From assembly GCA_025453495.1 (NCBI GenBank), contig JALOQM010000001.1, positions 15,664-79,663 of the forward strand: a stretch of 64,000 nt of DNA. Reading direction: 5' to 3'. Made by a program: the position numbers and the translations under genes. This document shows, one piece after another, positions 6,078-55,704 of the stretch. Source of the DNA: Minisyncoccota bacterium (GTDB lineage: Bacteria > Patescibacteriota > Minisyncoccia > Phycocordibacterales > UBA9973). Within the stretch, counting starts at the first letter, position 1; every line of letters starts with the position of its first letter. The notes below the pieces were generated by a model. That model did not search any database. It had not been told where the DNA came from and saw only the letters and a program-made list of their open reading frames with translations.

Positions 6078-6785
6078 TTAGCAAAGACCAGCCCCAATAG
6101 TTTCAAGCTTTTCCTTAACTCTCTCCCATTTAGGGTACTTTTCATCAAGTAATCGCCAGAACTTTGTATTGTGATTTTTGTATTTCAAATGACAAAGCTC
6201 ATGAATTATTACGTAGTCGATACAATCTTTTGAAGTATGAATTAGTTTAGGATTAAGAAATATTTTGTCTTTGTTGAGAAAACTACCCCAACGTTTCTTC
6301 ATTTCTCGAGTAGCAAGAATAGGAGTATTTTTATATTCAAACTTATTTAACATTTCCTTGAATCTATCTTGAAAAACACTTTCTGTTTTTACTTCAAACC
6401 ATTCATCAACCAGCTTTTTATTGTGGCGACTGTTTGAAACCTCTTTTGTGGTGTAAATAGTTAGAAGTCCTCTTGTTAATGAAACAAGGTCCTCTTTGCC
6501 ACGTCTTACGACCAGCTTATATTGTCTACCAAGATATAAATATCCCTCGCCAGAAATATATTCTTTTTCGTAAATCTTTCGTTGGTACTTTTTGAAAAAT
6601 GAAAGCTGTTTTTCTAACCAGAACCACTTTTTCTGTAAGAAGTTTTCTATTCTTTCATTATCGGTTTGTAGTGGACACTTAAGAATAATACGTAAGTCTG
6701 GAGTGACAGTGAGAGACAGTGTTTTACGATCTTGTTTTATAAGTTGGTATTCATATACAAATGTTCCAAATATGAATTCTTTCAT
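6078..6785 (-). CDS. DUF45/YgjP-like zinc metallohydrolase (WLM/M48-like HExxH)
   Basis: HELCHL motif. This family is often encoded next to type I hsdR genes. Confidence 0.7.
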   Translation of the reverse strand: MKEFIFGTFVYEYQLIKQDRKTLSLTVTPDLRIILKCPLQTDNERIENFLQKKWFWLEKQLSFFKKYQRKIYEKEYISGEGYLYLGRQYKLVVRRGKEDLVSLTRGLLTIYTTKEVSNSRHNKKLVDEWFEVKTESVFQDRFKEMLNKFEYKNTPILATREMKKRWGSFLNKDKIFLNPKLIHTSKDCIDYVIIHELCHLKYKNHNTKFWRLLDEKYPKWERVKEKLETIGAGLC

Positions 6786-6789
6786 AAGA

Positions 6790-9700
6790 TTAAGTGAATA
6801 AATCGAAGTTATTTTCTGCTAACAGCATTACATTATCAATGACAGCTTTGATGTGGTCGTTGTCTATTTCAATACCTTTTTCTCCTTTAACTACATCATA
6901 AAGATAGTCATCAATACTATTTCGCATCTTACGCTTAACGTCCATGTTTTTATACCAATCAACAATAGCCTCATTCTTAATGATTGCGAAAATATCAAGA
7001 ATTATAGAAATATATAATTCTTCACTAAGCTTTAGACTCTCAAACTGAGATCGTAAGTTACGGTAAAAAATATCAGAACCTTTATTTGTCTCAATATTTT
7101 CTGGAAGACTTTCATCCTTCTTGTTCACAACATCGTCACGAATTAACTTCATTTGTTTCAATGCTTCAACATCCGCAAGTTTACCTTGTCGCATCTTTTC
7201 AAGAATTTCTGAAATCTTTTTAGAAAACTTTTCGTAAAACTCAGGGTCAGTATCAAGTTTTTCGGTGATAGTTTTTTGTGTTTGTGCGGCGATAGCCTCA
7301 GCCTTTGATTTATCAGATCCAAGATTTTCAACAGCTTCTTCAAAAAGCTTTCTATCTGTAATGTTTACTTGTTTTGTTAGTAATTCAACCCCGCGAGCAT
7401 CAACATATTTATCAAGAATGTTAATAAGTGACTGCTTGTATTCTAATAGATCGACACGGTCTGCATATTGCAAACTAGCCGCCTTACGAAGCTCAGCAAA
7501 CTTTTTCAACTCACGCTTGTATAAATCAAGGTGTTTAAATTCATGCACGAAGTCTTGCAAGACAAAACACTCACTCAAATTCTTAATAAAAGCATTGAGT
7601 GTTTTGTAGAATGTTTCTCGTTTAGGTTGATCAGCAAGAAACTGTAAGTACACCTCATCATCAGATGATCCTTTTATTTCTTTAAATAAATCATGAACCA
7701 ATGAATAGCTCTGCTCGAGTTCCTGAATCTTATCTGCCACATCGATGAGGGTACCCTTCACATCGTTCTCATCATAGTTACCGAATAGCTTCATCGCTGT
7801 CTTAATATTTTTTGCGTTCTCAGAATAGTCAACAATATACCCTGCTGTCTTCGGTTTCTCTTTTGTATTTTCATAGAGACGATTTACACGAGCAATAGCC
7901 TGGAGTAAATCATGATCATGTAAATCTTTCGCTAAGTACAAGACGGTATTTCTAGGCGCATCGAATCCCGTGAGCAACTTACTCACAACAATAATAATTT
8001 CAACTCCGTCATCGTTATACTTAAAACTATCAACAACATCTTTCTCAAACTTCTCAACACTACTGTAATTTTTCTTTAAGTCCTCGAGATACTTAACAAC
8101 CTCTTTTTTATGTGTATCTTCTTCATCACCATCATCGTGTTCATCAGAAATCACAAGGGCTGTATTTATTTTTCCTGAAGTCTCAAATGCTCTTTGAAAC
8201 AAAACAGCTGAAAACTTTGACGGAGCAACGATTTGCGCTTTCAATCCAGTTCCCTGAAAATTTTCAATGAAATGTTTTTCAATATCAATAGCTATTTCTG
8301 AAATTCGATTTGGGTTATTCTGTATAATCTTTGTTCCAGCGTGCTTTTGTAGTTCCTTCTTTTGTTTATCATTAAGCCCCTCTACGATTCTTTCCATGCG
8401 TCTGTCTACCTGTTCCTGATTTTGAACAAGTTCTACATATCTTCCCTCGTAAATTAATGGGAGGATAACCTTGTCAGCCAAAGCATCATCGATAGTGTAT
8501 CTATCAATTTCCCCTCCAAATTTATTCCAACTTTTATCATTCTTTAAAAGAGGAGTTCCTGTAAATCCAATATAGCAAGCATTCGGTATAACACGGTTCA
8601 TCTCAAGATTAGCTATTCCATACTGCGTTCTGTGGGCTTCATCAATTAAAACAAAAATATTTTTATCTTTGTCTATAACAGAACCTTTTTTCCCGGCAGT
8701 TTGAAATTTTTGGACCAAAGTAGTAATAACTGCGAGTTCCTTATTCTGGATAAGATCAAGTAGATGTTCGCCACTTGTAGCCTGAACAACGTCTTTCTTA
8801 AGGTTACAGTTCTTGAACGTATCCTTGATTTGTTTATCGAGATCTCGACGATCGGTGACAATAATCACTCGAGGGTTGAGAATATGAGGGTCTTCAATAA
8901 GAGCCTTCACAAACATCACCATAGTGAGCGATTTACCAGATCCTTGTGTGTGCCATACGAGTCCACCTTTTCGGCGAGTGATGCCTTGCTCAGTAGTTTC
9001 TTCTTCCTCTATACGCTTGAGCATCTTGTGAATAGCAAAATATTGCTGATAGCGTGAGAGCTTCTTTACTCCTGCATCGAAAAGAATGTAATTCTTGGTG
9101 AGGTCAAGTAACCGCTTTGGTTCAAATAAAGAAAATATACCTCGATCTTGCTCAGTAGGTAATCTGTCTGTTCTTTGCTTATGTCCCTCGGTGTAGCCGT
9201 TGAGATCTTCGAGAATCTGCTTGTATACATCGGCATCAATAGGCTTCTGTATTAGCTTGCCAATCTGTGTATTGAGGTCTTCTTCTTTTGCACCTTTTTC
9301 TTTCCAAACAGCATAGAACTTGTTAGGTGTGCCTGTTGTTCCGTATTGCAAATCTTTTCCATTGGTACCAACGAGAAGCTGGGTATAGGTATAGAGCTTT
9401 GGACAATACTCAGGACCTTGGTTTCGGTTCATCTGGTTGATGGCCTCTTTCACATCAACACCAGACTTTTTGTTCTCAATCACTGCAAAAGGAATGCCGT
9501 TCACAAAACACACAATATCAGGACGGATATTCTGTTTACCACTCGCTACAAATTCAGCAGATACATGGAATGCATTATTCTGTGTGTTCTCGAAGTCAAT
9601 AAACTTGAAGTTCTTTGATATCTTTTTGCCTCCATGGCTTACCTTTATAGTCTTGCCACCACTGGTAGGCATGATGATGTTGTAGATCTTTTGAGCGGTA

Positions 9701-9975
9701 TCAATAAGTCCTTCGTATTGGATATGCTCAAGCTCATCGATAGCGTCACGAACATCTTTTTCACTGAACTTGTAGGTAGTTCCATCAACTTCGTACCCGT
9801 TTATGTCCATGAGTTTCTCGGTAGCAATATCAGCAAGGATGAAGTTTGAAGTATCACCGGAACGCTGTCTGAGTGCTTCCTCGGCAGAAATATATGTATA
9901 GCCCATGCTCAAGAGAAGCTCTATGAATGGGAGCTGTGATTGTTTTGCTTCATCAAAATGTACTTTTTCTAACAT
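6790..9975 (-). CDS. hsdR: Type I restriction enzyme R subunit
   Basis: 1061 aa with SF2 helicase motifs (GSGKS Walker A, DEAHR box) and the type I R architecture. Confidence 0.9.
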   Translation of the reverse strand: MLEKVHFDEAKQSQLPFIELLLSMGYTYISAEEALRQRSGDTSNFILADIATEKLMDINGYEVDGTTYKFSEKDVRDAIDELEHIQYEGLIDTAQKIYNIIMPTSGGKTIKVSHGGKKISKNFKFIDFENTQNNAFHVSAEFVASGKQNIRPDIVCFVNGIPFAVIENKKSGVDVKEAINQMNRNQGPEYCPKLYTYTQLLVGTNGKDLQYGTTGTPNKFYAVWKEKGAKEEDLNTQIGKLIQKPIDADVYKQILEDLNGYTEGHKQRTDRLPTEQDRGIFSLFEPKRLLDLTKNYILFDAGVKKLSRYQQYFAIHKMLKRIEEEETTEQGITRRKGGLVWHTQGSGKSLTMVMFVKALIEDPHILNPRVIIVTDRRDLDKQIKDTFKNCNLKKDVVQATSGEHLLDLIQNKELAVITTLVQKFQTAGKKGSVIDKDKNIFVLIDEAHRTQYGIANLEMNRVIPNACYIGFTGTPLLKNDKSWNKFGGEIDRYTIDDALADKVILPLIYEGRYVELVQNQEQVDRRMERIVEGLNDKQKKELQKHAGTKIIQNNPNRISEIAIDIEKHFIENFQGTGLKAQIVAPSKFSAVLFQRAFETSGKINTALVISDEHDDGDEEDTHKKEVVKYLEDLKKNYSSVEKFEKDVVDSFKYNDDGVEIIIVVSKLLTGFDAPRNTVLYLAKDLHDHDLLQAIARVNRLYENTKEKPKTAGYIVDYSENAKNIKTAMKLFGNYDENDVKGTLIDVADKIQELEQSYSLVHDLFKEIKGSSDDEVYLQFLADQPKRETFYKTLNAFIKNLSECFVLQDFVHEFKHLDLYKRELKKFAELRKAASLQYADRVDLLEYKQSLINILDKYVDARGVELLTKQVNITDRKLFEEAVENLGSDKSKAEAIAAQTQKTITEKLDTDPEFYEKFSKKISEILEKMRQGKLADVEALKQMKLIRDDVVNKKDESLPENIETNKGSDIFYRNLRSQFESLKLSEELYISIILDIFAIIKNEAIVDWYKNMDVKRKMRNSIDDYLYDVVKGEKGIEIDNDHIKAVIDNVMLLAENNFDLFT

Positions 9976-9979
9976 ATAG

Positions 9980-10825
9980 TTATTTTAATTTCTTCTTACT
10001 TTTTTGCGCCGGCAGATAGTTCTCACCAGTGACGACCTTTCTCCCTGTTTTTTCTTCGAGTGCAAGTCTGGCATCTTTTGCAATCTTGCCACCTTTTTGC
10101 GCAGGAATTTTATTTTCTTCCAATCCTTTCGCTTCGGTATTCTCTGCAATCTGTCGTGTTGAAAGCTCCGCAAGTGCGGTAAAGATGAGCTCAGCCTCAG
10201 ACATATGATCACGAACATTTGCGGTCTTCCCCAAGCCTTTCAATTTTTTATGATCTTGCACACCAAGCCCACTCCACTCTTGGTGAATGATATTCGTCAG
10301 AATCGCATACTCCTTACCCTCTTCTACACCCGCAGATTTCCAATAGTCGGTGAGCTTGTTGCGTGTCTCTTGCCCCATCATGCGCTGCTGTATCCACTTG
10401 TCGCTTCGGCCATGCTTTTTCCAATACTCGCGCGAACGGTTGAGTGCTATCTCTGGGTTTACCATTTCGTCGATTCTCTCCTGTCCGACCTTTGCAAGCC
10501 ACTGCTTGAAAGGCTCGGCCTTAGGTGAAGAAATGGATTGGATAATACGGAACATACCTTGCAAATTGGACATATTTTCTACACGCTTCTTACCATCACG
10601 AGCAACTACGTCAAGGGGGGTACAAATTGTACCCCAGTTGACAGAAAGCTCAGGATCACGTGTACGCATCTTTTTGATATATTGTTTTACATCTTTCGAC
10701 TCAGAAAGCACCCGTACGACATCAGAAACAGCAAAATACCATTGCTCGTCATGCCACACGCGACGCACCTCTGTTGCCTCAAATATTGCGGGTACTATAT
10801 TTTTTTGTATTTGTGGTTTTTTCAT
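9980..10825 (-). CDS. Bro-N domain protein, DNA-damage-inducible protein D (DinD)-like
   Basis: N-terminal Bro-N-like block (TEVRRVWHDEQWYFAVSDVVRVL). The C-terminal HKKLKGLGKTANVRDHMSEAELIFTALAELST pattern resembles DinD. Confidence 0.55.
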   Translation of the reverse strand: MKKPQIQKNIVPAIFEATEVRRVWHDEQWYFAVSDVVRVLSESKDVKQYIKKMRTRDPELSVNWGTICTPLDVVARDGKKRVENMSNLQGMFRIIQSISSPKAEPFKQWLAKVGQERIDEMVNPEIALNRSREYWKKHGRSDKWIQQRMMGQETRNKLTDYWKSAGVEEGKEYAILTNIIHQEWSGLGVQDHKKLKGLGKTANVRDHMSEAELIFTALAELSTRQIAENTEAKGLEENKIPAQKGGKIAKDARLALEEKTGRKVVTGENYLPAQKSKKKLK

Positions 10826-10829
10826 ATAT

Positions 10830-11114
10830 TTATTTGATTGGCATTGCTGATAATGTTTCTCGCCCAGCTAAATAAGATTTGAGCCTATTTTTTATAAACA
10901 TCTTTCCGTGGTATGTTTTTAAATACTTCTCTCGATGAATTGCGTCATTTTCATCAAGACACGCTTCATAATATACAAGCTCGAGTGGTCTTCGTGGTGC
11001 GGTAGATTCCACTTTGCCTTTTTGGTGTTGCTCAAATCTTAATTTTAAATTTTTACTATAACCAGTATAAAATTTGTTGTCTTTTTTTGATTGTAATAAG
11101 TAAGTGTAGTACAT
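10830..11114 (-). CDS. GIY-YIG nuclease superfamily protein (UPF0213/YhbQ-like)
   Basis: MYYTYLLQSKKDNKFYTGYSKNLKLRFEQH is a classic GIY-YIG core; 94 aa. Confidence 0.7.
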   Translation of the reverse strand: MYYTYLLQSKKDNKFYTGYSKNLKLRFEQHQKGKVESTAPRRPLELVYYEACLDENDAIHREKYLKTYHGKMFIKNRLKSYLAGRETLSAMPIK

Positions 11115-11125
11115 AAAATTTAAAA

Positions 11126-12358
11126 TTATTTAGCGGGGTCTGGTGTACGAATTGTGCCAGTGATCAAATTATTGAGGAGATACTTCTTTTGATCCTTAAT
11201 GATTTGAAGTTTCTTCTCAAGTTCTTGGATTTCATCTTCGGCAGTATTGAGTATCTTTGCGATTGCTTCTTGTTCTTTTATATCTTTAGGTAGATATATT
11301 TTGCATTCACCAATATCTCCCAGATTAATCTTTATAGGGAAAGCAACGTGTAGTGTTTTGGCTCTCAGCTCATTTTGAAAATCCTTAGTTGTAAGAAAAA
11401 AAGATAACGCTTTTGAATCAAAGGACCTATTAACTTTAAGAAGCGCTAATGTGACGTAGAAAGATGCTTTAACATCCCAATCTATATACTTGATGGCACC
11501 AATACTTCCAATTCGCGTCATCAAAATATCACCTCTTTCTATTCGAACTTTCTTTATCTCAGATTCATAAACTTTCTCTGAAATATACTTTGTATTTTTA
11601 AAGTCATTAGAAGTTACATGTTCGACACTATAGAATGGAATCCCGTGCTCGACATATGTAGGAGTCTGGTGAGTGCCATCGTATATTTTACAAACGTCTT
11701 TTAATAAAAGCGTCTGCCATTTATCTCCAAATCCAGACAAGCGTTTTTTGCCAGAAAGTAAATTTTGTTTTAAGGCTAATCTTATATTTTTCTTGATCTG
11801 AATTTTCTTTGAAAGTTTTTCAATTGATTTATCCCAAGTTTCAAGAACTGAAACGATGCGATTTTGTTCTGGGAGAGGAGGAAGTTTTATTTTTATAGAT
11901 TTAAGAATTTGCAAATTCAAACCACCACGACCACCGTCACCGGCAGAGATAGATCTTAATTCTTGATATCGTCTTTCTAAATCTGACCTTAAAAAACTAT
12001 AGCTAATATCTTTCTTTGGTATAAAAAAAGCTATGGACTGATTTGTAGTAAGTGAAATTTTATTTACAGCAACCTTTCCTCTTGTAGAACCCTGACCAGC
12101 TAAAGCAATCAAAACACTGTTTGCTGGCACTATTTTCGCTGATGAATTTTTAAAACCTTCATCAGTTATAAAATTTTCTGTTTGATAAATATTTTTCTTA
12201 TTGATTTCGGCTGAATTAGCCCATGGAATATTTCCACCTTCCCAGTATTCCAAAACATCTGTCGAAGGTGTACCTCCAGCAGAAATATCACAAACAACAC
12301 CAATCTTTACTTGCTGCCATTCTGGATGAATATTTTTTTGTTGTTGATTAGTTTTCAT
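11126..12358 (-). CDS. hsdS: Type I restriction-modification specificity subunit (two target-recognition domains)
   Basis: 410 aa with two TRD-like halves and conserved LPPLPEQ-type spacer and C-terminal repeats. Confidence 0.85.
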   Translation of the reverse strand: MKTNQQQKNIHPEWQQVKIGVVCDISAGGTPSTDVLEYWEGGNIPWANSAEINKKNIYQTENFITDEGFKNSSAKIVPANSVLIALAGQGSTRGKVAVNKISLTTNQSIAFFIPKKDISYSFLRSDLERRYQELRSISAGDGGRGGLNLQILKSIKIKLPPLPEQNRIVSVLETWDKSIEKLSKKIQIKKNIRLALKQNLLSGKKRLSGFGDKWQTLLLKDVCKIYDGTHQTPTYVEHGIPFYSVEHVTSNDFKNTKYISEKVYESEIKKVRIERGDILMTRIGSIGAIKYIDWDVKASFYVTLALLKVNRSFDSKALSFFLTTKDFQNELRAKTLHVAFPIKINLGDIGECKIYLPKDIKEQEAIAKILNTAEDEIQELEKKLQIIKDQKKYLLNNLITGTIRTPDPAK

Positions 12359-12415
12359 AATTTCACTGGTTTAATTGAGATATCTATAATTTAGATATCT
12401 CTTACTGCCCTCAAA

Positions 12416-12640
12416 TTATTCTTTACTCTCGTATCCTTTTTTACAATTCAGCATAATGTAAGAATTTAATCCTTGGCCAGCTTTGGCAAGTCTTTTCATT
12501 TCATTTACGTGAATTTCACCCGCACTTTGATTGGTGTATTTATAGATACTAGAGTCTTTAAATTGAACTCGTATAAAATCTACACCAATTTCAAAACCTT
12601 TTACATTAGAATCTCCCCCTAAATTTGCGTATGTTTCCAT
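12416..12640 (-). CDS. KTSC-domain small protein
   Basis: FIRVQFKDSSIYKYTNQSAGEIHVNEMKRLAKAGQGLNSYIMLN fits the KTSC pattern (Y.Y...Y..L..A.S.G.YFN). Confidence 0.45.
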   Translation of the reverse strand: METYANLGGDSNVKGFEIGVDFIRVQFKDSSIYKYTNQSAGEIHVNEMKRLAKAGQGLNSYIMLNCKKGYESKE

Positions 12641-12699
12641 ATGTCATATTTGGCTAACTAATAATTAGTTTAACGACATTTCGGTCATTATAATGAATA

Positions 12700-13950
12700 T
12701 TATTCTTCTGAAGCTCGTTTAAATTTTTCTTGCATAGTCGGATTTCCTTTTGTTAATTTTTTAATAGTTAAATCATCAGCTTTATTATTTGCCAAACGAA
12801 GATTATTTTCCGAAGCCAAAAGATTGTCTTTAATCTTTTGAAGATGATCAATTGATTTATCAATCTCTTCTACAGCTGCTTTGAATTTTTGACTTGCTAA
12901 ATTGTAATTACGAGCAAATCCTTCCTTAAAAGCATTGAGGTTTTCTTCAAAGTGAGTAATATCTACATTTTGACTTTTCACAACAGCGAGTTCTGCCTTA
13001 TATTGCATCGAATTTAAAGCAGCATTTCGCAAAAGTGTGATAATTGGAATAAAGAATTGAGGTCGAACTACGTACATTTTAGGGTAACGATGGAATACAT
13101 CAACAATTCCAGTGTTATATAGCTCATTATCACTTTCAAGCAACGAAACTAGAACTGCGTATTCACACTTCTTTTCATTTCTATCCTTATCTAGTTCTTT
13201 CAAAAAGTCTTCATTCTTTTTCTTTGTAGCGGTAGTATCCGATTCATTTTTCATTTCAAACATTATTGAAATAATTTCATTACCTGCCTCATCATATTCT
13301 CGGTAAATATAGTCTCCTTTACTTCCAGTGGCTGAGTCATTATCTTTTTCAAAAGTAGCATTCTTAAAACCTGTTGCACGGAGTTTATTAAACTCAATTT
13401 CACAATGTTGTTCAAGAGTTTCGCCAAGCATTTTTGTTGAGAGCTTTACCTTCATGTCTTTGTAGCGCTCAATAATTTCATCTTTAGCTTTAAGCTCTGC
13501 CTCAAATTTACTATTTAAAGATAGTTCGATTTGTTGCTTTTCAGCATCCTTCATCTTTATCTCAGAAGCAAGATGGTCACGCTCTTTTTCAATTTTTGTC
13601 ACAGCCTCAGTGATTGCAAGTTTTTTTTCAGTTTCTGTCGATGAAAGCTTCGCTCGCAGTTCTGTTATTTCAAGTTCACTTTGAGACTTAGATAGATTTA
13701 CTTCACGCTCCTTTTCAGCCTTAAGTCTTGCGATTTCTAAATCTTTTTGAGCAAGGTCGTCTTTAATTTTATTTTTTACTTGCTCTTCAGCCAACTTTAC
13801 GGCACTCTCTTTTTCAGCCTTCAAAAGACTTTCTCTTTTGAGAAGCTCTTCTTCAAATTGGTGATCTCGTACTTGTTTAAGAATATCAGCATAACCTGCT
13901 TCATCAATTTTAAATGCTTTTTTACAATGTGGGCAAATTATTTCATTCAT
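12700..13950 (-). CDS. DUF2130-family protein (zinc ribbon, coiled coil, C-terminal domain)
   Basis: The N-terminus [28 protein letters not shown] is the hallmark start of DUF2130, followed by a long coiled coil. This family recurs inside type I R-M operons. Confidence 0.65.
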
Positions 13951-13957
13951 ACGTTTA

Positions 13958-15469
13958 TTATTTAATCCCTAATTCTTTTAAATATCCAACCATTTGTTTT
14001 TCAAGCTTCGCAAGCTCAGGCTCAAGAGCTTCAAGTTCTTTGAGGTTTGCTTTTATGTCCACAGGAGCTTCTTCCTCAAACGTATCGACGTATCGAGTGA
14101 TGTTGAGGTTAAAATCATTTTCCTCAATTTCCTTAAGAGAAACCTTGCGGGCAAATTTCTCTACATCCTTATGTTTCTTGTAGGTAGAGTAAATCTTCTC
14201 GATGTTCTCATCGGTAAGAATGTTCTGAGCTTTATTTGGTTTATATTCCTTTGAAGCCTCGATAAAGAAAACATCTTTTTTAGATTCGTTCTCTCCGCCT
14301 TTCTCACGTGATCGGTCAATAATAAGGATGGCTACAGGAATTCCCGTTGTCTGGAACAATCCCGCAGGTAGTCCGATAACTGCATCTATAAGATTTTCCT
14401 TGAGGAGCTGTTCGCGAATCTTTCCTTCAGCTCCACCACGGAAGAGAACGCCGTGTGGCACTACGACTGCCATATGGCCAGTCTTCGCCTTGAGTGTCTC
14501 AACCATGTGCGTGATAAAGGCAAAATCACCTTTATCCTTTGGTGGAACACCACGCCAGAATCGCTTGTATTTGTCGGCTTCTGCGTGCTCGGCACCCCAT
14601 TTTTTAAGAGAAAACGGAGGGTTTGCCACGATCGTGTCAAACTTCATCAAATGGTCGTTCTCTACAAGGAGAGGATTGTTCAATGTGTCACCCCATTCAA
14701 GTCGGGCTGAATCCTTTCCGTGGAGGAACATGTTCATGCGAGCGAGCTGATAGGTTGATCCTGTTGATTCCTGACCATAGAGTGCGTAGTTTTTTGAACC
14801 TTGTTTCTCAACTTCTTCACCTGCAAGGAGGAGGAGGCCACCTGAACCCATACAAGGATCACAAATACGTGCCCCTGCTTGTGGCTCTGCGAGCTTTGCA
14901 ACGAGCTGGGCAACGTTTCTCACAGTGAAAAATTCGCCCGCTTTCTTGCCCGCGTCGGCACCAAAGCGTTCGATCATATACATATATGAGTTACCGATGA
15001 TGTCGTCCTTCACGTCGCCGAGGTCAATCTGAGCAAAGTCCTGCACGAGATGGCGGAGCATCTTGTTTCGTTCAGCGAGCTTGCCGAGTGTTGATTCTGA
15101 GTTGAAGTCTACAGAAAATACTCCATCGAGTTTCTCTTTGTTTGTGTCTTCGATTCGATGAAGTGCTTTGTTGATTTCTTCACCAAGATTATCTTGCTCG
15201 ATTACCGAATAGATATAATCGAATGAAGACTTTGGGGGAAGATAGAAGCGATCGAGCTTCATTTTTTCTTCGATACGCTTTGTGTCGCTACCAAAACGCT
15301 CTTTGTATTCAGCATACTTCTTCTTTGAGAGGTCAGAGAGGTATTTAAAGAAAAGCATTGCAAGAACGTAGTCTTTGTAGATACCTGCATCTACCTGAGT
15401 ACGAGAAGAATCCGCTGCGTCCCAGAGGATTTTGTTTAGGTCTTCTTGTGTATATTTTTGAGTATTCAT
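13958..15469 (-). CDS. hsdM: Type I restriction-modification N6-adenine DNA methyltransferase subunit
   Basis: HsdM N-terminal domain plus the catalytic [11 protein letters not shown] (NPPF) motif and an AdoMet-binding region. Confidence 0.9.
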
Positions 15470-15470
15470 A

Positions 15471-16082
15471 TTAGTTATTAATTAGGTTAGTAAACGATGC
15501 GTTGATAATGTTTTTTTGTAATTCTTGTTTTCTCTTTAGTATCCGTTCTTGGTCTGTTATGTTTTCGTGGAGTGCGATGATGGATTTTTGAATATGTATC
15601 GGGGGTATGGGGATTTTAAAATCAATCAAATTTTTTACTAAAATACTTTGTATATAGGACCCGCCCGTAACTATTTGAAGTAATTCTTTTTGCCCGATTT
15701 CTGAGTTGAGGTATAGCGATACATATTTAGGGAGGACTGTGACATCTTGAATTCGTATTACATGAACCGAAGATGATGGCATCACCTTTGATTCATCAGA
15801 TACAAAAACTGCGGATCGAAATGAGCCTGGCCCTGACCCTCTAGAGACAAGCAAAATGTCATTATGTTGTAGGAAGTAGGGGTTTCTCAAAGATTTATCT
15901 GTAATTGTTGTAAAACCAGTTATATATTGAATATCTTGGTTTGTTTGTACATTTTTAGCTTGAAGCACAAAAATATCCCCATTTGGGTCATTTTCTATAG
16001 ACCCACGGAATGTGTACCCTGAAACAATGTCTGCTAATTGGCTCAATTTCTTGTGCATGTAAAAAGCATACTGCATTTTCAA
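15471..16082 (-). CDS. Half-size HsdS-like specificity protein (single TRD plus conserved C-terminal repeat)
   Basis: 203 aa. It ends with IPIPPIHIQKSIIALHENITDQERIL, typical of the S-subunit conserved region, and abuts hsdM. Confidence 0.65.
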   Translation of the reverse strand: MKMQYAFYMHKKLSQLADIVSGYTFRGSIENDPNGDIFVLQAKNVQTNQDIQYITGFTTITDKSLRNPYFLQHNDILLVSRGSGPGSFRSAVFVSDESKVMPSSSVHVIRIQDVTVLPKYVSLYLNSEIGQKELLQIVTGGSYIQSILVKNLIDFKIPIPPIHIQKSIIALHENITDQERILKRKQELQKNIINASFTNLINN

Positions 16083-16146: not shown

Positions 16147-17502
16147 TTGGAGGGGTTGCGTCATCAATGTAGTTGTATGAAAACAACAGCACCAATTGGC
16201 TACGAAATGACACAAGCAGCCCAAGCACCAATAAAAGTGAGGTATTGCCTCTATGCCCGTAAATCAACGGAATCTGAGGAAAGACAGGTTCTTTCAATAG
16301 ATTCGCAGATTAAGGAAATGTTACAGCTCGCCGAGAGAGAAAACTTGGAGATTGTAACAATGAAGCGAGAAAGCCATTCAGCAAAAGAAACTGGACAACG
16401 ACCAGTCTTTAACGAGATTATTGAGGAGATACGGCAAAAGAAGTACAACGGCATACTGACATGGGCACCTGACCGTATTAGTAGAAATGCCGGAGACTTG
16501 GGAAAGATAGTAGATCTGATGGATGCAGGATTGTTACAAGAAATACGTATATATGGTCAAAAATTTTCAAACAATCCAAACGAAAAATTCTTGCTAATGA
16601 TTCTTGGATCGCAAGCGAAATTAGAGAATGACAATAGAGGTGTGAATGTAAAACGAGGATTGCGTACGAGAGTTGAAATGGGTCTCTGGCCTGGGGTAGC
16701 ACCACTTGGATACTTAAATCAAAAACATATGGATAAAAAGTGTCAGGTAATAGTCGATCCACAACGTGCTCCTGTCATCAAAAAGATATTTGAAAAAGTA
16801 GTATACGAACACTATTCAGGAAGAAAGTTATATAACTGGTTACGACACGAACTGAATTTCTATACTCGTGGCAACAAACCTCTGACCTTAAGCGGAATAT
16901 ACCGAATACTTGAAAATCAGTTCTATCATGGAGTGTTTGAGCATCCGAGAGGAAGCGGTAACTGGTATCAAGGAAAACATGAGCCACTCATCACACAGGA
17001 ACTATTTGAAAAAGCTCAAGCACAACTAAAGCGAGATAATATACAACGAGAGAATAAAGAATTCGCATTCACGAAACTATTCACCTGCGGATACTGTGGT
17101 AGTGGAATATCAGCAGAGGAAAAATGGAAACAACTCAAAGATGGTACGCATGCGAAATACATCTACTACTTCTGCTCAAGAGCGAGAGATAGAAACTGCA
17201 AGAATATGTACATACGAGAGGAAGATTTAATACTTGAGCTATTGAAGATCCTCGACAAAGTAAACATCAATGAACTAGGTATGCGAAAGAAACTAGAAGA
17301 TGAGATCGCAAGGTTCAATATCTTCCAAAGATCAGTGCTTGGAGCAACAGACAAGATTAAAAACAACAAAGATACTGAAATACGAAACTTCGCTAAGTAT
17401 ATTTTGAAAGAAGGAGCAGTTGGAGAGAAACGAGAGCTGCTAGCCAACCTAAGATCGAGAATAATATACAAAGACAAACAACTTATACTGATTGCTGAAT
17501 AA
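16147..17502 (+). CDS. Large serine recombinase (resolvase catalytic domain, recombinase domain, zinc ribbon)
   Basis: YARKSTESEERQVLSIDSQ catalytic block, a recombinase domain and a CGYCGS zinc ribbon. The likely true start is an internal Met at 16177 or 16207. Divergent from the R-M operon. Confidence 0.85.
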   Translation: MEGLRHQCSCMKTTAPIGYEMTQAAQAPIKVRYCLYARKSTESEERQVLSIDSQIKEMLQLAERENLEIVTMKRESHSAKETGQRPVFNEIIEEIRQKKYNGILTWAPDRISRNAGDLGKIVDLMDAGLLQEIRIYGQKFSNNPNEKFLLMILGSQAKLENDNRGVNVKRGLRTRVEMGLWPGVAPLGYLNQKHMDKKCQVIVDPQRAPVIKKIFEKVVYEHYSGRKLYNWLRHELNFYTRGNKPLTLSGIYRILENQFYHGVFEHPRGSGNWYQGKHEPLITQELFEKAQAQLKRDNIQRENKEFAFTKLFTCGYCGSGISAEEKWKQLKDGTHAKYIYYFCSRARDRNCKNMYIREEDLILELLKILDKVNINELGMRKKLEDEIARFNIFQRSVLGATDKIKNNKDTEIRNFAKYILKEGAVGEKRELLANLRSRIIYKDKQLILIAE

Positions 17503-17519: not shown

Positions 17520-18080
17520 ATGGGACAAAATAACACTCATAATTCTGAGTCGAGGGAGCATAGATTAGAAAGATTGAAAAGTCACCCTGTTGAAGCTATC
17601 GAAACACTTCTAAACTCTATAGCTAATTTTTTCAATAACGAAATTCTACTAACACCGACACACTATCAAACATCGTTAATGTTTTTAGGTATCCATGCTT
17701 CTGCCCTTACAATTGGAGAAGTATTTTTTCAGCACAAAAGTGATTTAGATAATTATAAGGATTTTATGCGTACGTTTATCGATGGAGAAACTGAAGATAC
17801 AAAATTTTCTCTTGTTGCTGAACATATACACAACTGGAGAAATATAATTGCGCATCAATGGATAGGATCTCTAGGTCATCGAGTGGAATATGATTATCAG
17901 GCTGAATTAGGCTGGCAGATGGTCGAAGACACTCTTATTATAAATCCAAGAATATACTGCGATAAATACATGGATGCTTTTTCAGCTAGAGGGAGAATTT
18001 GGCAATATGATTCCATATTTACTGAAGAACAGATCGTAAAAGCTCACGAACAAATTGTTCGTAAATACGAAAATCGTTAA
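17520..18080 (+). CDS. Hypothetical protein
   Basis: 186-aa ORF with no recognisable domain, followed by a terminator. Confidence 0.35.
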   Translation: MGQNNTHNSESREHRLERLKSHPVEAIETLLNSIANFFNNEILLTPTHYQTSLMFLGIHASALTIGEVFFQHKSDLDNYKDFMRTFIDGETEDTKFSLVAEHIHNWRNIIAHQWIGSLGHRVEYDYQAELGWQMVEDTLIINPRIYCDKYMDAFSARGRIWQYDSIFTEEQIVKAHEQIVRKYENR

Positions 18081-18180: not shown

Positions 18181-18270
18181 CTTGGCGGAGAGGGAGGGAT
18201 TCGAACCCTCGATACCCTTTCGGATATACAACCTTTCCAGGGTTGCCGTTTCAACCGCTCACGCACCTCT
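18181..18270 (-). tRNA. tRNA-Ser (anticodon GGA), class II, CCA encoded
   Basis: Manual cloverleaf. Acceptor GGAGAGG/CCTCTCC; anticodon stem CAACC/GGTTG with loop CTGGAAA; long variable arm with GAAA tetraloop; T-arm GAGGG-TTCGAAT-CCCTC; 3' end GCCA. Confidence 0.85.
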
Positions 18271-18357
18271 CCAGATACAAGCGTCAAACGAATCTGTTAT
18301 ACCGTAAATCAACAAAAAAAGCGACACAATATAATGTGTCGCTTTGGTATAGTGCTT

Positions 18358-30499: not shown

Positions 30500-30758
30500 G
30501 CTTGCAAACTTCACAGAGGAAGTGAGCGACGTACGAATGTCGCTCACATTTTTTTCTAAATACACACCGTTGGTACGATGCGTAGAACCAATTTGGCACT
30601 CTCACGTTAAACGTGAATCAGAAAAATTCGTGGGGAGAGCCGGATTCGAACCGGCACGGACGTTAGTCCATCAGATTGAAGTCTGACGAGTCTGCCAATT
30701 CCTCCATCCCCCTCAAGAATAAAATAAAAAGAACAATTCCTCTGTGAAGTTTGCAAGC
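30500..30758 (-). repeat. 23S rRNA intervening-sequence (IVS)-like insertion with a perfect 22-bp inverted-repeat stem and 215-nt loop
   Basis: gcttgcaaacttcacagaggaa (30500-30521) is the exact reverse complement of ttcctctgtgaagtttgcaagc (30737-30758). The loop contains extra hairpins and a tRNA-like T-arm (GCCGG-TTCGAAT-CCGGC). The site matches the helix-45 region where IVSs occur in other bacteria. Confidence 0.6.
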
Positions 30759-55209: not shown

Positions 55210-55592
55210 GGGGCTGATCGGCCTAGACAAGAGGACGATCGCTTGCCGTGCATGCCGAGTATGCGAAAATCTCGCTAAACTTTTCGCGGACGACCAAGTG
55301 CAAACAAAGTCGCTTCAGTAAAGTCACCGTACGCAAGTGCGTTTGGCTTTGCTCCAGCTCTCGCCTAACGGCCGGCTGGTGTCTTCCCTTCTTTTTCCGA
55401 CACGGAGGGCAAGGCAATATATTGTCGGGATAAGGAAAAAGGAGCGTCCGGCCTCTTTCACGAAAAATTAGGAATCGGCGCTCGCGGATTTTGCCCGTCT
55501 CATACCGCGCGTGCTTAAACAAAAAGACCGGCTACGCATGTAGATTCGACACGCATCACCTTTTGCACGCGGGTTCGATTCCCGCCAGCTCC
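55210..55592 (+). ncRNA. ssrA: Transfer-messenger RNA (tmRNA)
   Basis: 5' GGGGCTGATCGGCC... and 3' ...GACACGCATCACC...GCGGGTTCGATTCCCGCCAGCTCCA(C)A form a tRNA-Ala-like domain with G3:U70 potential. It lies immediately 3' of smpB. The internal frame ends ...FAPALA-stop, a plausible tag peptide. Confidence 0.85.
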
Positions 55593-55704
55593 ACAAAAAC
55601 TTGACGAATACCTCAAGTATGGTATTTTTATATCGTTAATTCACGTCTTAACCATTCACCGTGGACAGGGCGATGAATCGCTCTTTCCATATAAAAACAC
55701 GACA

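Follow-up and report, generated by a model that had tools for sequence, protein, structure and literature searches.

Genes embedded in type I restriction-modification (RM) operons are often independent defences, a regularity known as 'guilt-by-embedding' (Payne et al. 2024, bioRxiv 10.1101/2024.01.29.577857). Two described cases are TgvAB, nested in a type I RM system on Vibrio pathogenicity island 2 (VPI-2) of V. cholerae (PMC11411939), and DarTG2, embedded in the RRDM island of enteropathogenic Escherichia coli (EPEC) (PMC12255303). Here we analyse a type I RM operon of a Minisyncoccota bacterium, a member of the Patescibacteria or Candidate Phyla Radiation (CPR). It lies on contig JALOQM010000001.1 (assembly GCA_025453495.1), of which we studied a stretch of 64,000 nucleotides; this whole stretch is called the window, and positions are counted from its first letter. 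One database source assigns the exact DUF2130 protein to a metagenome-assembled genome (MAG) of Candidatus Pacebacteria. Between hsdM and hsdS the operon carries a gene for a DUF2130 protein and another for a small protein of 74 amino acids (aa), named K74 here. We consider it reasonably probable that these are two independent embedded defence or accessory genes, both co-transcribed cargo of the RM operon. The junction reads as follows.

13958..15469, minus strand: hsdM, type I methyltransferase, 503 aa (Pfam N6_Mtase 3.5e-99, HsdM_N 6.2e-21)
12700..13950, minus strand: DUF2130 protein, 416 aa (Pfam PF09903 E=7.6e-90)
12416..12640, minus strand: K74, small protein, 74 aa (homologues, conservation and AlphaFold2 (AF2) model)
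11126..12358, minus strand: full-length hsdS, 410 aa, two target recognition domains (TRDs) (Pfam Methylase_S 4e-41, two stretches; PADLOC Specificity_I 3e-65)

These four belong to an array of nine genes, all on the minus strand, in the order half-size hsdS, hsdM, DUF2130, K74, hsdS, GIY-YIG, Bro-N, hsdR and YgjP. An earlier reading of the window from its letters alone (the sequence-only reading) had placed the DUF2130 and 74-aa genes between hsdM and hsdS with spacers of 5-60 bp and had taken them to be co-transcribed with the RM genes. Its coordinates, gene sizes and layout were confirmed, and the spacers measure 7, 59 and 57 bp (hsdM/DUF2130, DUF2130/K74 and K74/hsdS, respectively); the remaining gaps of the array are 1-11 bp, which gives a range of 1-59 bp for the whole. 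Co-transcription is plausible from this arrangement on one strand. No terminator-like site was seen in the spacers between DUF2130, K74 and hsdS, and because none separates them DUF2130 would be transcribed with hsdM and hsdS. A promoter scan was uninformative, with promoter-like matches at chance level (37 against 34.8 expected).

The type I system itself is complete, with full-length hsdR, hsdM and hsdS bearing the expected Pfam and PADLOC domains. The locus thus resembles the embedded defences cited above in having same-strand, tightly spaced genes inside a complete type I system, and in that its cargo is also found un-embedded. Its Bro-N gene is moreover recognised by PADLOC as the phage-defence candidate PDC-S13 of Payne and colleagues. 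Unlike in those cases, where the extra genes lie between hsdS/M and hsdR, the cargo considered here lies between hsdM and hsdS.

The content of this junction varies within one RM lineage, which we followed over ten contig types: the window, L081, L088, L117, L166, L167 (counted separately), L168, L173, L174 and L176. In L081, L088, L117, L166 and L168 the identity to the window proteins is 82-92% for HsdM and 73-84% for HsdR; L173, L174 and L176 were placed in the lineage by gene order only. Between hsdM and hsdS the contigs hold:

Window and L081: DUF2130, K74
L173: DUF2130, WYL, NYN, K74
L166/L167 and L168: DUF2130, an unrelated 107-aa gene
L088: DUF4145, SMODS nucleotidyltransferase, a 163-aa gene, K74
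L174: an unrelated 403-aa gene, K74
L176: PemK toxin, K74, DUF3644
L117: DUF3800; K74 lies instead between hsdS and hsdR

DUF2130 thus occupies the slot in six contig types and K74 in seven (an eighth has K74 after hsdS), and both are present in three of the ten, against about four expected if they assorted independently. K74 is the more constant of the two and usually stands directly before hsdS. In the closest relatives, whose DUF2130 is 87-88% identical to that of the window, the 107-aa gene takes the place of K74. This gene was considered as a long variant of K74 and rejected (15-17% identity, unrelated), and so was the 403-aa gene of L174 as a divergent DUF2130, to which it has no similarity. 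The hsdS-hsdR slot is variable too and contains GIY-YIG with Bro-N, Bro-N alone, KilA-N, or nothing; the GIY-YIG gene is absent from the related loci, and the Bro-N copy of L081 is 88% identical. The intergenic slots of this mobile-looking type I operon act as cargo sites.

What kind of protein DUF2130 may be is indicated by an existing classification, since the family (PF09903, COG4487) is listed as group 109 of the PD-(D/E)XK superfamily, with function unknown (Steczkiewicz et al. 2012, PMC3424549). The window protein scores 301.1 bits against PF09903, for which the cut-off is 26.7 bits, and its residues 145-401 cover profile positions 4-254 of 255. Its AF2 model has a mean predicted local distance difference test score (pLDDT) of 72 and can be divided into the following parts.

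aa 2-15: CxxC beta-hairpin
aa 17-173: long helix
aa ~177-296: PD-(D/E)XK core
aa 332-400: C-terminal long helix
13063..13422, minus strand: predicted PD-(D/E)XK catalytic core, aa 177-296, with E184, D213, E232 and K234 (motif and AF2 topology)

The predicted core runs alpha179-194, beta198-202, beta214-219, beta225-233, alpha243-258 and beta263-270, with more helices up to residue 415. In this αβββαβ arrangement beta2 begins with D213 and beta3 ends with E232-x-K234, which is the canonical PD-(D/E)XK order, and the full catalytic signature (an acid at beta2, E-x-K at beta3 and a Glu in alpha1) is found in DUF2130. Two alignments bear on these residues, A1 of 26 DUF2130 homologues and A6 of 26 core domains that are more diverse. 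In both, D213 and K234 are invariant and E232 is nearly so, at 90% or more; E177 and E184 are invariant in A1, and the invariance of E184 is limited to that alignment. Whether the protein has a nuclease or an ATPase fold had been put as a question by the sequence-only reading. The published listing, the motif and the topology all support a catalytic PD-(D/E)XK fold. The lack of any catalytic fold, which would have counted against the sequence-only reading, is therefore improbable. Searches of Pfam and NCBIfam gave no ABC ATPase or anticodon-nuclease domain. We therefore describe DUF2130 as a predicted PD-(D/E)XK nuclease.

The N-terminal part agrees less well with the label of zinc ribbon that it had been given. 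A single invariant CxxC knuckle (C6, C9) is present, but the second knuckle that would complete four zinc ligands is lacking: H8 and H30 vary among the homologues of A1, and the match to Zn_ribbon_4 is subthreshold (16.6 against 30.3 bits) and covers positions 3-17 of 36. The protein carries at best one CxxC knuckle, and a zinc ion shared by two protomers is conceivable. Behind it the coiled-coil arm forms a helix of about 155 residues. Homologues range from 416 to about 530 aa and differ by insertions of whole coiled-coil blocks, so that the arm changes in length by internal duplication; the coiled-coil part of the window gene contains a 26-nt direct repeat with a spacing of 99 nt, or 33 codons (13697-13821, minus strand).

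Beyond the RM lineage we surveyed 80 DUF2130 loci from different species, with proteins 57-73% identical, and looked for hsd genes within 10 kb. The loci come from Patescibacteria, Bacteroidota, Proteobacteria, Actinomycetota, Verrucomicrobiota and Campylobacterota. Only 3-5 of the 80 have hsd genes nearby (L004, L010 and L022, possibly L007 and L045), and K74 occurs in one (L022). The linkage of both families to hsdM and hsdS is therefore conserved within one RM lineage and is not family-wide. There is no conserved DUF2130 neighbourhood, the largest cluster of neighbours comprising 5 of the 80 loci. Defence genes abound in these surroundings, and the same-strand neighbours include a P2 Old-like ATPase-TOPRIM protein (PADLOC Old 2.8e-230), GmrSD_N, HNH, 1,900-aa DUF4011/MTES_1575 helicase-nucleases and an EcoRI methylase. 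The Old/OLD nucleases, which are nuclease-type defence genes, are the commonest neighbour of DUF2130 (4 of 80 loci) as well as of K74; the window contains no Old gene, and adjacency does not show joint function.

DUF2130 was found on 75 plasmids and in none of 50,697 phage records. On pNP40, a phage-resistance plasmid of Lactococcus lactis (L171), a 59% identical DUF2130 protein (7001-8284) adjoins a TrlF-family AAA-like ATPase and lies between two cytosine methyltransferases and an abortive infection (Abi) gene; the lactococcal antiphage survey does not mention it. On Bradyrhizobium plasmids DUF2130 stands beside anti-phage dGTPase and TerB-N genes. In the sense of Payne and colleagues the gene is an embedded candidate, flanked as it is by hsdM and hsdS and with homologues in other defence contexts. 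The literature that we found on DUF2130/PF09903 consists of incidental mentions and the superfamily table of 2012. From these contexts we suggest that DUF2130 is a widely transferred and strongly conserved putative nuclease, which may be a self-sufficient effector of defence or abortive infection that targets DNA. It would work alone or with varying ATPase neighbours; in this operon it would share a transcript with the hsd genes while remaining independent of them.

K74 is a real gene: it has 89 homologues among proteins, and tblastn confirmed 263 stretches in contigs from metagenomes; its alignment has 13 invariant columns, including a GQGLNS motif, and the AF2 model (pLDDT 88) has a beta-beta-beta-alpha-alpha order. 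It had been called a KTSC-domain protein. K74 itself gives no Pfam match even at E<=10, and the signals in favour of the label are sub-threshold: KTSC (PF13619) is the commonest sub-threshold Pfam match of the K74 family (10 of 42 members, best E=0.0068), the family profile aligns in register, weakly, with PDB entry 7x8c, a 'KTSC domain-containing protein' (residues 10-37 to 10-37, E=1.1), and one UniRef entry names a K74 homologue KTSC. Foldseek of the K74 model against PDB returned nothing at E<=0.001, with 7x8c outside the top 50, and our literature search found no paper on structure 7X8C. At least 90% of the sequences of alignment A3 keep the tyrosines Y33 and Y35, which fit the central Y-x-Y motif of the KTSC domain. 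K74 thus shares with KTSC proteins its size, this motif and a beta-rich N-terminus followed by helices, and differs in falling below the Pfam threshold, in having no significant structural match and in its own invariant GQGLNS motif. We call it remotely KTSC-like and not a KTSC member.

We examined 63 non-redundant K74 loci flanked by 2 kb or more; DUF2130 is present in 8 of them and type I RM genes in 5. The commonest neighbour is the Old-like gene (10 loci), and further ones are an SMC-like protein of 806 aa together with its partner of 156 aa, SbcD/SbcC-like pairs, PIN_8, ThsB_TIR, and proteins combining PDDEXK_1 and RNase_H_2. Relatives of K74 are leader genes of Old-like, SbcD/SbcC-like and SMC-like operons (L118, L128, L101, L152, L178 and others), and on a Rhizobium plasmid (L178) one overlaps sbcD by 4 bp. 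In the eight loci shared with DUF2130 the two genes lie within 10 kb of each other, in at least four arrangements: K74 before DUF2130 (L112), Old before DUF2130 and convergent with K74 (L118, L121), K74, Old and DUF2130 in a row (L128), and, in Burkholderia (L083), K74 together with DUF2130, a 407-aa gene and a HerA-like gene. The HerA-like protein is a DUF87 ATPase, and this last locus resembles the HerA, KTSC and endoDNase systems mentioned by Iyer, Burroughs and Aravind (2022, PMC9503650).

Phage records also match K74: 69 of them, against none for DUF2130 (Pseudomonas phage records: 62). In the Pseudomonas jumbo phage HPP-Temi (L177) a K74-like segment with 45% identity (2501-2719) makes up residues ~71-143 in a 'virion structural protein' of 248 aa. 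In this RM lineage K74 is a separate, semi-fixed accessory placed immediately before hsdS, and elsewhere it leads other nuclease/ATPase defence operons; with low confidence it may be a small nucleic-acid-binding regulator or adaptor, and it would not be a partner of DUF2130.

Two conserved elements flank the small-gene slot in the window:

12658..12685, minus strand: 28-nt leader ACCGAAATGTCGTTAAACTAATTATTAG preceding the small-gene slot, conserved, one copy in the window
12377..12401, minus strand: hairpin between K74 and hsdS, 10-bp stem GAGATATCTA / TAGATATCTC, unique in the window

In L081 and L088 a longer leader block is conserved before K74, and in L166 this block precedes the unrelated 107-aa gene; L167 matches its 14-nt core, and L088 has two tandem copies. 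The hairpin has an RNA fold z of -4.18. Across eight loci compensatory changes maintain its stem, counted there as 11 bp, and double changes affect 8 of 19 predicted pairs. Because both elements persist where the 107-aa gene replaces K74, with the hairpin following that gene in L166 and L168, they are not specific to K74 and are part of the operon, in which they probably form an RNA element. An integron-like cassette array served by the serine recombinase next to the operon was considered and rejected, since other cargo genes are not flanked by copies of the leader, which occurs once per locus and twice, in tandem, only in L088.

These elements matter for the alternative that survives best, namely that K74 is the controller of the RM operon, an analogue of controller (C) proteins or of RptR that sets the expression of hsdS and hsdR, with DUF2130 as unrelated cargo. 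In its favour, K74 stands directly upstream of hsdS in the window, L081, L088, L173 and L174, with a conserved leader before it and a conserved, covarying hairpin after it; small regulators tied to type I RM systems exist, RptR being one (PMC12255303), and KTSC has been called DNA-binding (PMC9503650). Yet the leader and the hairpin are there also with the 107-aa gene in the place of K74, and a stem whose sequence varies freely is more what one expects of an RNA structure than of a protein operator. We accordingly rejected K74 as a palindrome-binding controller, an RNA hairpin being more likely for a palindrome that covaries freely and persists without K74, and RptR as its equivalent, since RptR is all-helical and K74 is beta-beta-beta-alpha-alpha. 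The occurrence of K74 relatives as a domain of a jumbo-phage 'virion structural protein' does not suit an operon controller either. We hold a controller role to be unlikely, if still worth keeping in mind.

Several observations weigh against our preferred account of two independent embedded genes. The co-transcription that it includes follows from geometry only. For the nuclease, Foldseek of the DUF2130 model against PDB gave no significant match, although the top weak ones (E 0.08-0.5) are mostly PD-(D/E)XK nucleases (BstEII, DdmD, MspJI, AspBHI, Cap4, MUS81); the core profile found no PDB sequence at E<=10, and the confidence of the AF2 core is modest (pLDDT 47-74 over aa 170-330). DUF2130 and K74 are both absent from PADLOC v2.0.0, the one defence catalogue consulted, and from the supplements of Payne and colleagues, unlike the embedded defences described there, and their defence role here is a predicted one. 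The co-occurrence of K74 and DUF2130 outside RM operons (8 of the 63 K74 loci) looks above chance to us, as an impression, and leaves some room for a functional connection. Finally, DUF2130 is unusually conserved for a defence gene, its C-terminal domain being 57-77% identical across phyla, which could point to a conserved cellular role.

This last point is also what favours taking DUF2130 as a housekeeping nuclease of DNA repair or recombination that hitch-hikes in variable regions, in the manner of RmuC. RmuC (PF02646) belongs to the same superfamily (PMC3424549) and shares with DUF2130 a long helical, coiled-coil N-terminal region and a C-terminal PD-(D/E)XK core. DUF2130 nevertheless has its own Pfam family, and no sequence match to RmuC was detected in our searches, which did not include a direct profile comparison of the two; it differs also in the CxxC knuckle at its N-terminus and in lying among defence genes. 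A housekeeping gene also fits poorly with the lack of a conserved neighbourhood, with neighbours that are defence genes, with its presence on conjugative plasmids and pNP40 and beside serine recombinases, and with a species distribution that looks patchy (an impression, not a prevalence figure). We regard the housekeeping role as improbable.

A further alternative is a guardian like PrrC, in which HsdM and HsdS would hold DUF2130, with or without K74, inactive until a phage anti-restriction protein blocks the RM system and releases it as a nuclease. RloC has a zinc-hook arm, a coiled coil with a CxxC hook, which the coiled coil and CxxC knuckle of DUF2130 may resemble. In L004 and L010 DUF2130 lies 18 bp downstream of hsdR. 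Its position between hsdM and hsdS in the window is like that of prrC in EcoprrI (PMC12707154), and for a gene inside an hsd operon, as with PrrC and RloC, guarding of the RM system is conceivable. PrrC, however, is almost exclusively RM-embedded, against about 5% of DUF2130 loci; DUF2130 is swapped for unrelated cargo inside the RM lineage, and it has neither the ABC ATPase nor the anticodon-nuclease domain. Because of the low RM linkage and the free replacement of DUF2130 we think a PrrC-like role quite improbable. In the same sense, of the candidate functions offered by the sequence-only reading, that of an Abi-like, independent defence effector is favoured, and those of a dedicated RM regulator and of an anti-anti-restriction factor lose ground, because the linkage is limited to one lineage and DUF2130 and K74 assort independently.

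An obligate two-gene system of DUF2130 and K74, in which a nuclease would be joined to a small DNA-binding sensor or antitoxin and which would sit in the RM operon by chance, could draw on the eight shared K74 loci with their several arrangements and on the HerA, KTSC and endoDNase systems of Aravind and colleagues, but is very improbable because the two genes assort independently: K74 accompanies DUF2130 in a single locus of the 80, gives way to the 107-aa gene beside the most similar DUF2130 proteins, occurs without DUF2130 in L088, L117, L174 and L176 of the same lineage, is separated from it by two other genes in L173, and shares the slot with it no more often than expected by chance. Equally speculative, and very doubtful in our opinion, is a scheme in which K74 is a portable sensor or adaptor for many nuclease/ATPase modules (Old, SbcCD-like, SMC/Lamassu-like, HerA-DUF2130 and type I RM); here it would couple DUF2130 to the state of HsdMS, hsdM-DUF2130-K74-hsdS would be a restriction-plus-backup-nuclease unit, and the phage K74-like domains would be mimics or triggers.

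Our preferred account, two independent genes carried by the RM operon, leaves the other members of the array and its surroundings to be described.

15471..16082, minus strand: half-size hsdS, 203 aa, single TRD, first operon gene (Pfam Methylase_S E=8.3e-11, one stretch; PADLOC Specificity_I)
10830..11114, minus strand: GIY-YIG nuclease-domain protein, 94 aa, cargo of the hsdS-hsdR slot (Pfam GIY-YIG 5.5e-16)
9980..10825, minus strand: Bro-N protein, 281 aa, cargo of the hsdS-hsdR slot (Pfam Bro-N 4.1e-12; PADLOC PDC-S13 2.7e-111)
6790..9975, minus strand: hsdR, restriction/translocase subunit, 1061 aa (Pfam HSDR_N, SWI2_SNF2, T1R_D3-like, T1RH-like_C)
6078..6785, minus strand: YgjP-like metallopeptidase, 235 aa, final operon gene (Pfam YgjP-like 2.6e-52)
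16147..17502, plus strand: large serine recombinase, 451 aa, divergent from the operon (Pfam Resolvase, Recombinase, Zn_ribbon_recom)
18183..18272: tRNA-Ser

The insertion between hsdM and hsdS is thus one of several extras, and the GIY-YIG and Bro-N genes, the half-size hsdS and the YgjP-like gene had been missed before. The half-size hsdS ends 1 bp upstream of hsdM and has counterparts in the equivalent position in L081, L088, L117, L166 and L168; the YgjP-like gene is equally placed in L081, L166, L168 and L173. A phase-variable hsdS inverton or shufflon was considered and rejected: the half-size and full-length hsdS share no repeat of at least 18 nt and lie on the same strand, and because no repeats link them there is no sign of phase variation.

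The serine recombinase may mobilise the island, which lies near the tRNA-Ser gene. Recombinases 53-89% identical to that of the window flank the RM operon or DUF2130 in L088, L166, L168 and L169, a Resolvase/Recombinase gene adjoins DUF2130 on the P0010 contig, and some close DUF2130 relatives adjoin the same kind of recombinase outside any RM operon. Directly 3' of the recombinase lies an open reading frame of 186 aa (17520-18080, plus strand), which matches nothing in Pfam or NCBIfam and has no relative among the related loci that we examined. Elsewhere in the window, ARAGORN lists a tRNA-like gene whose two-base anticodon it leaves undetermined (30630-30713, minus strand) and a transfer-messenger RNA (tmRNA) gene (55210-55594, plus strand).

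That type I RM operons harbour extra genes was already well known, the fold assignment of DUF2130 dates from 2012, and the locus is no new kind of system. What is new is the recognition of DUF2130 and K74 as recurrent defence-island genes, of an RM lineage with a hypervariable hsdM-hsdS slot, and of a covarying hairpin within it. Two uncharacterised families thereby join the candidate immune genes found by their embedding in restriction operons. In this RM lineage, represented in the window by a patescibacterial (CPR) genome, the hsdM-hsdS junction is a cargo hot spot beside a large serine recombinase, and the lineage offers a convenient natural series for asking whether embedded genes act with or without their host RM system.

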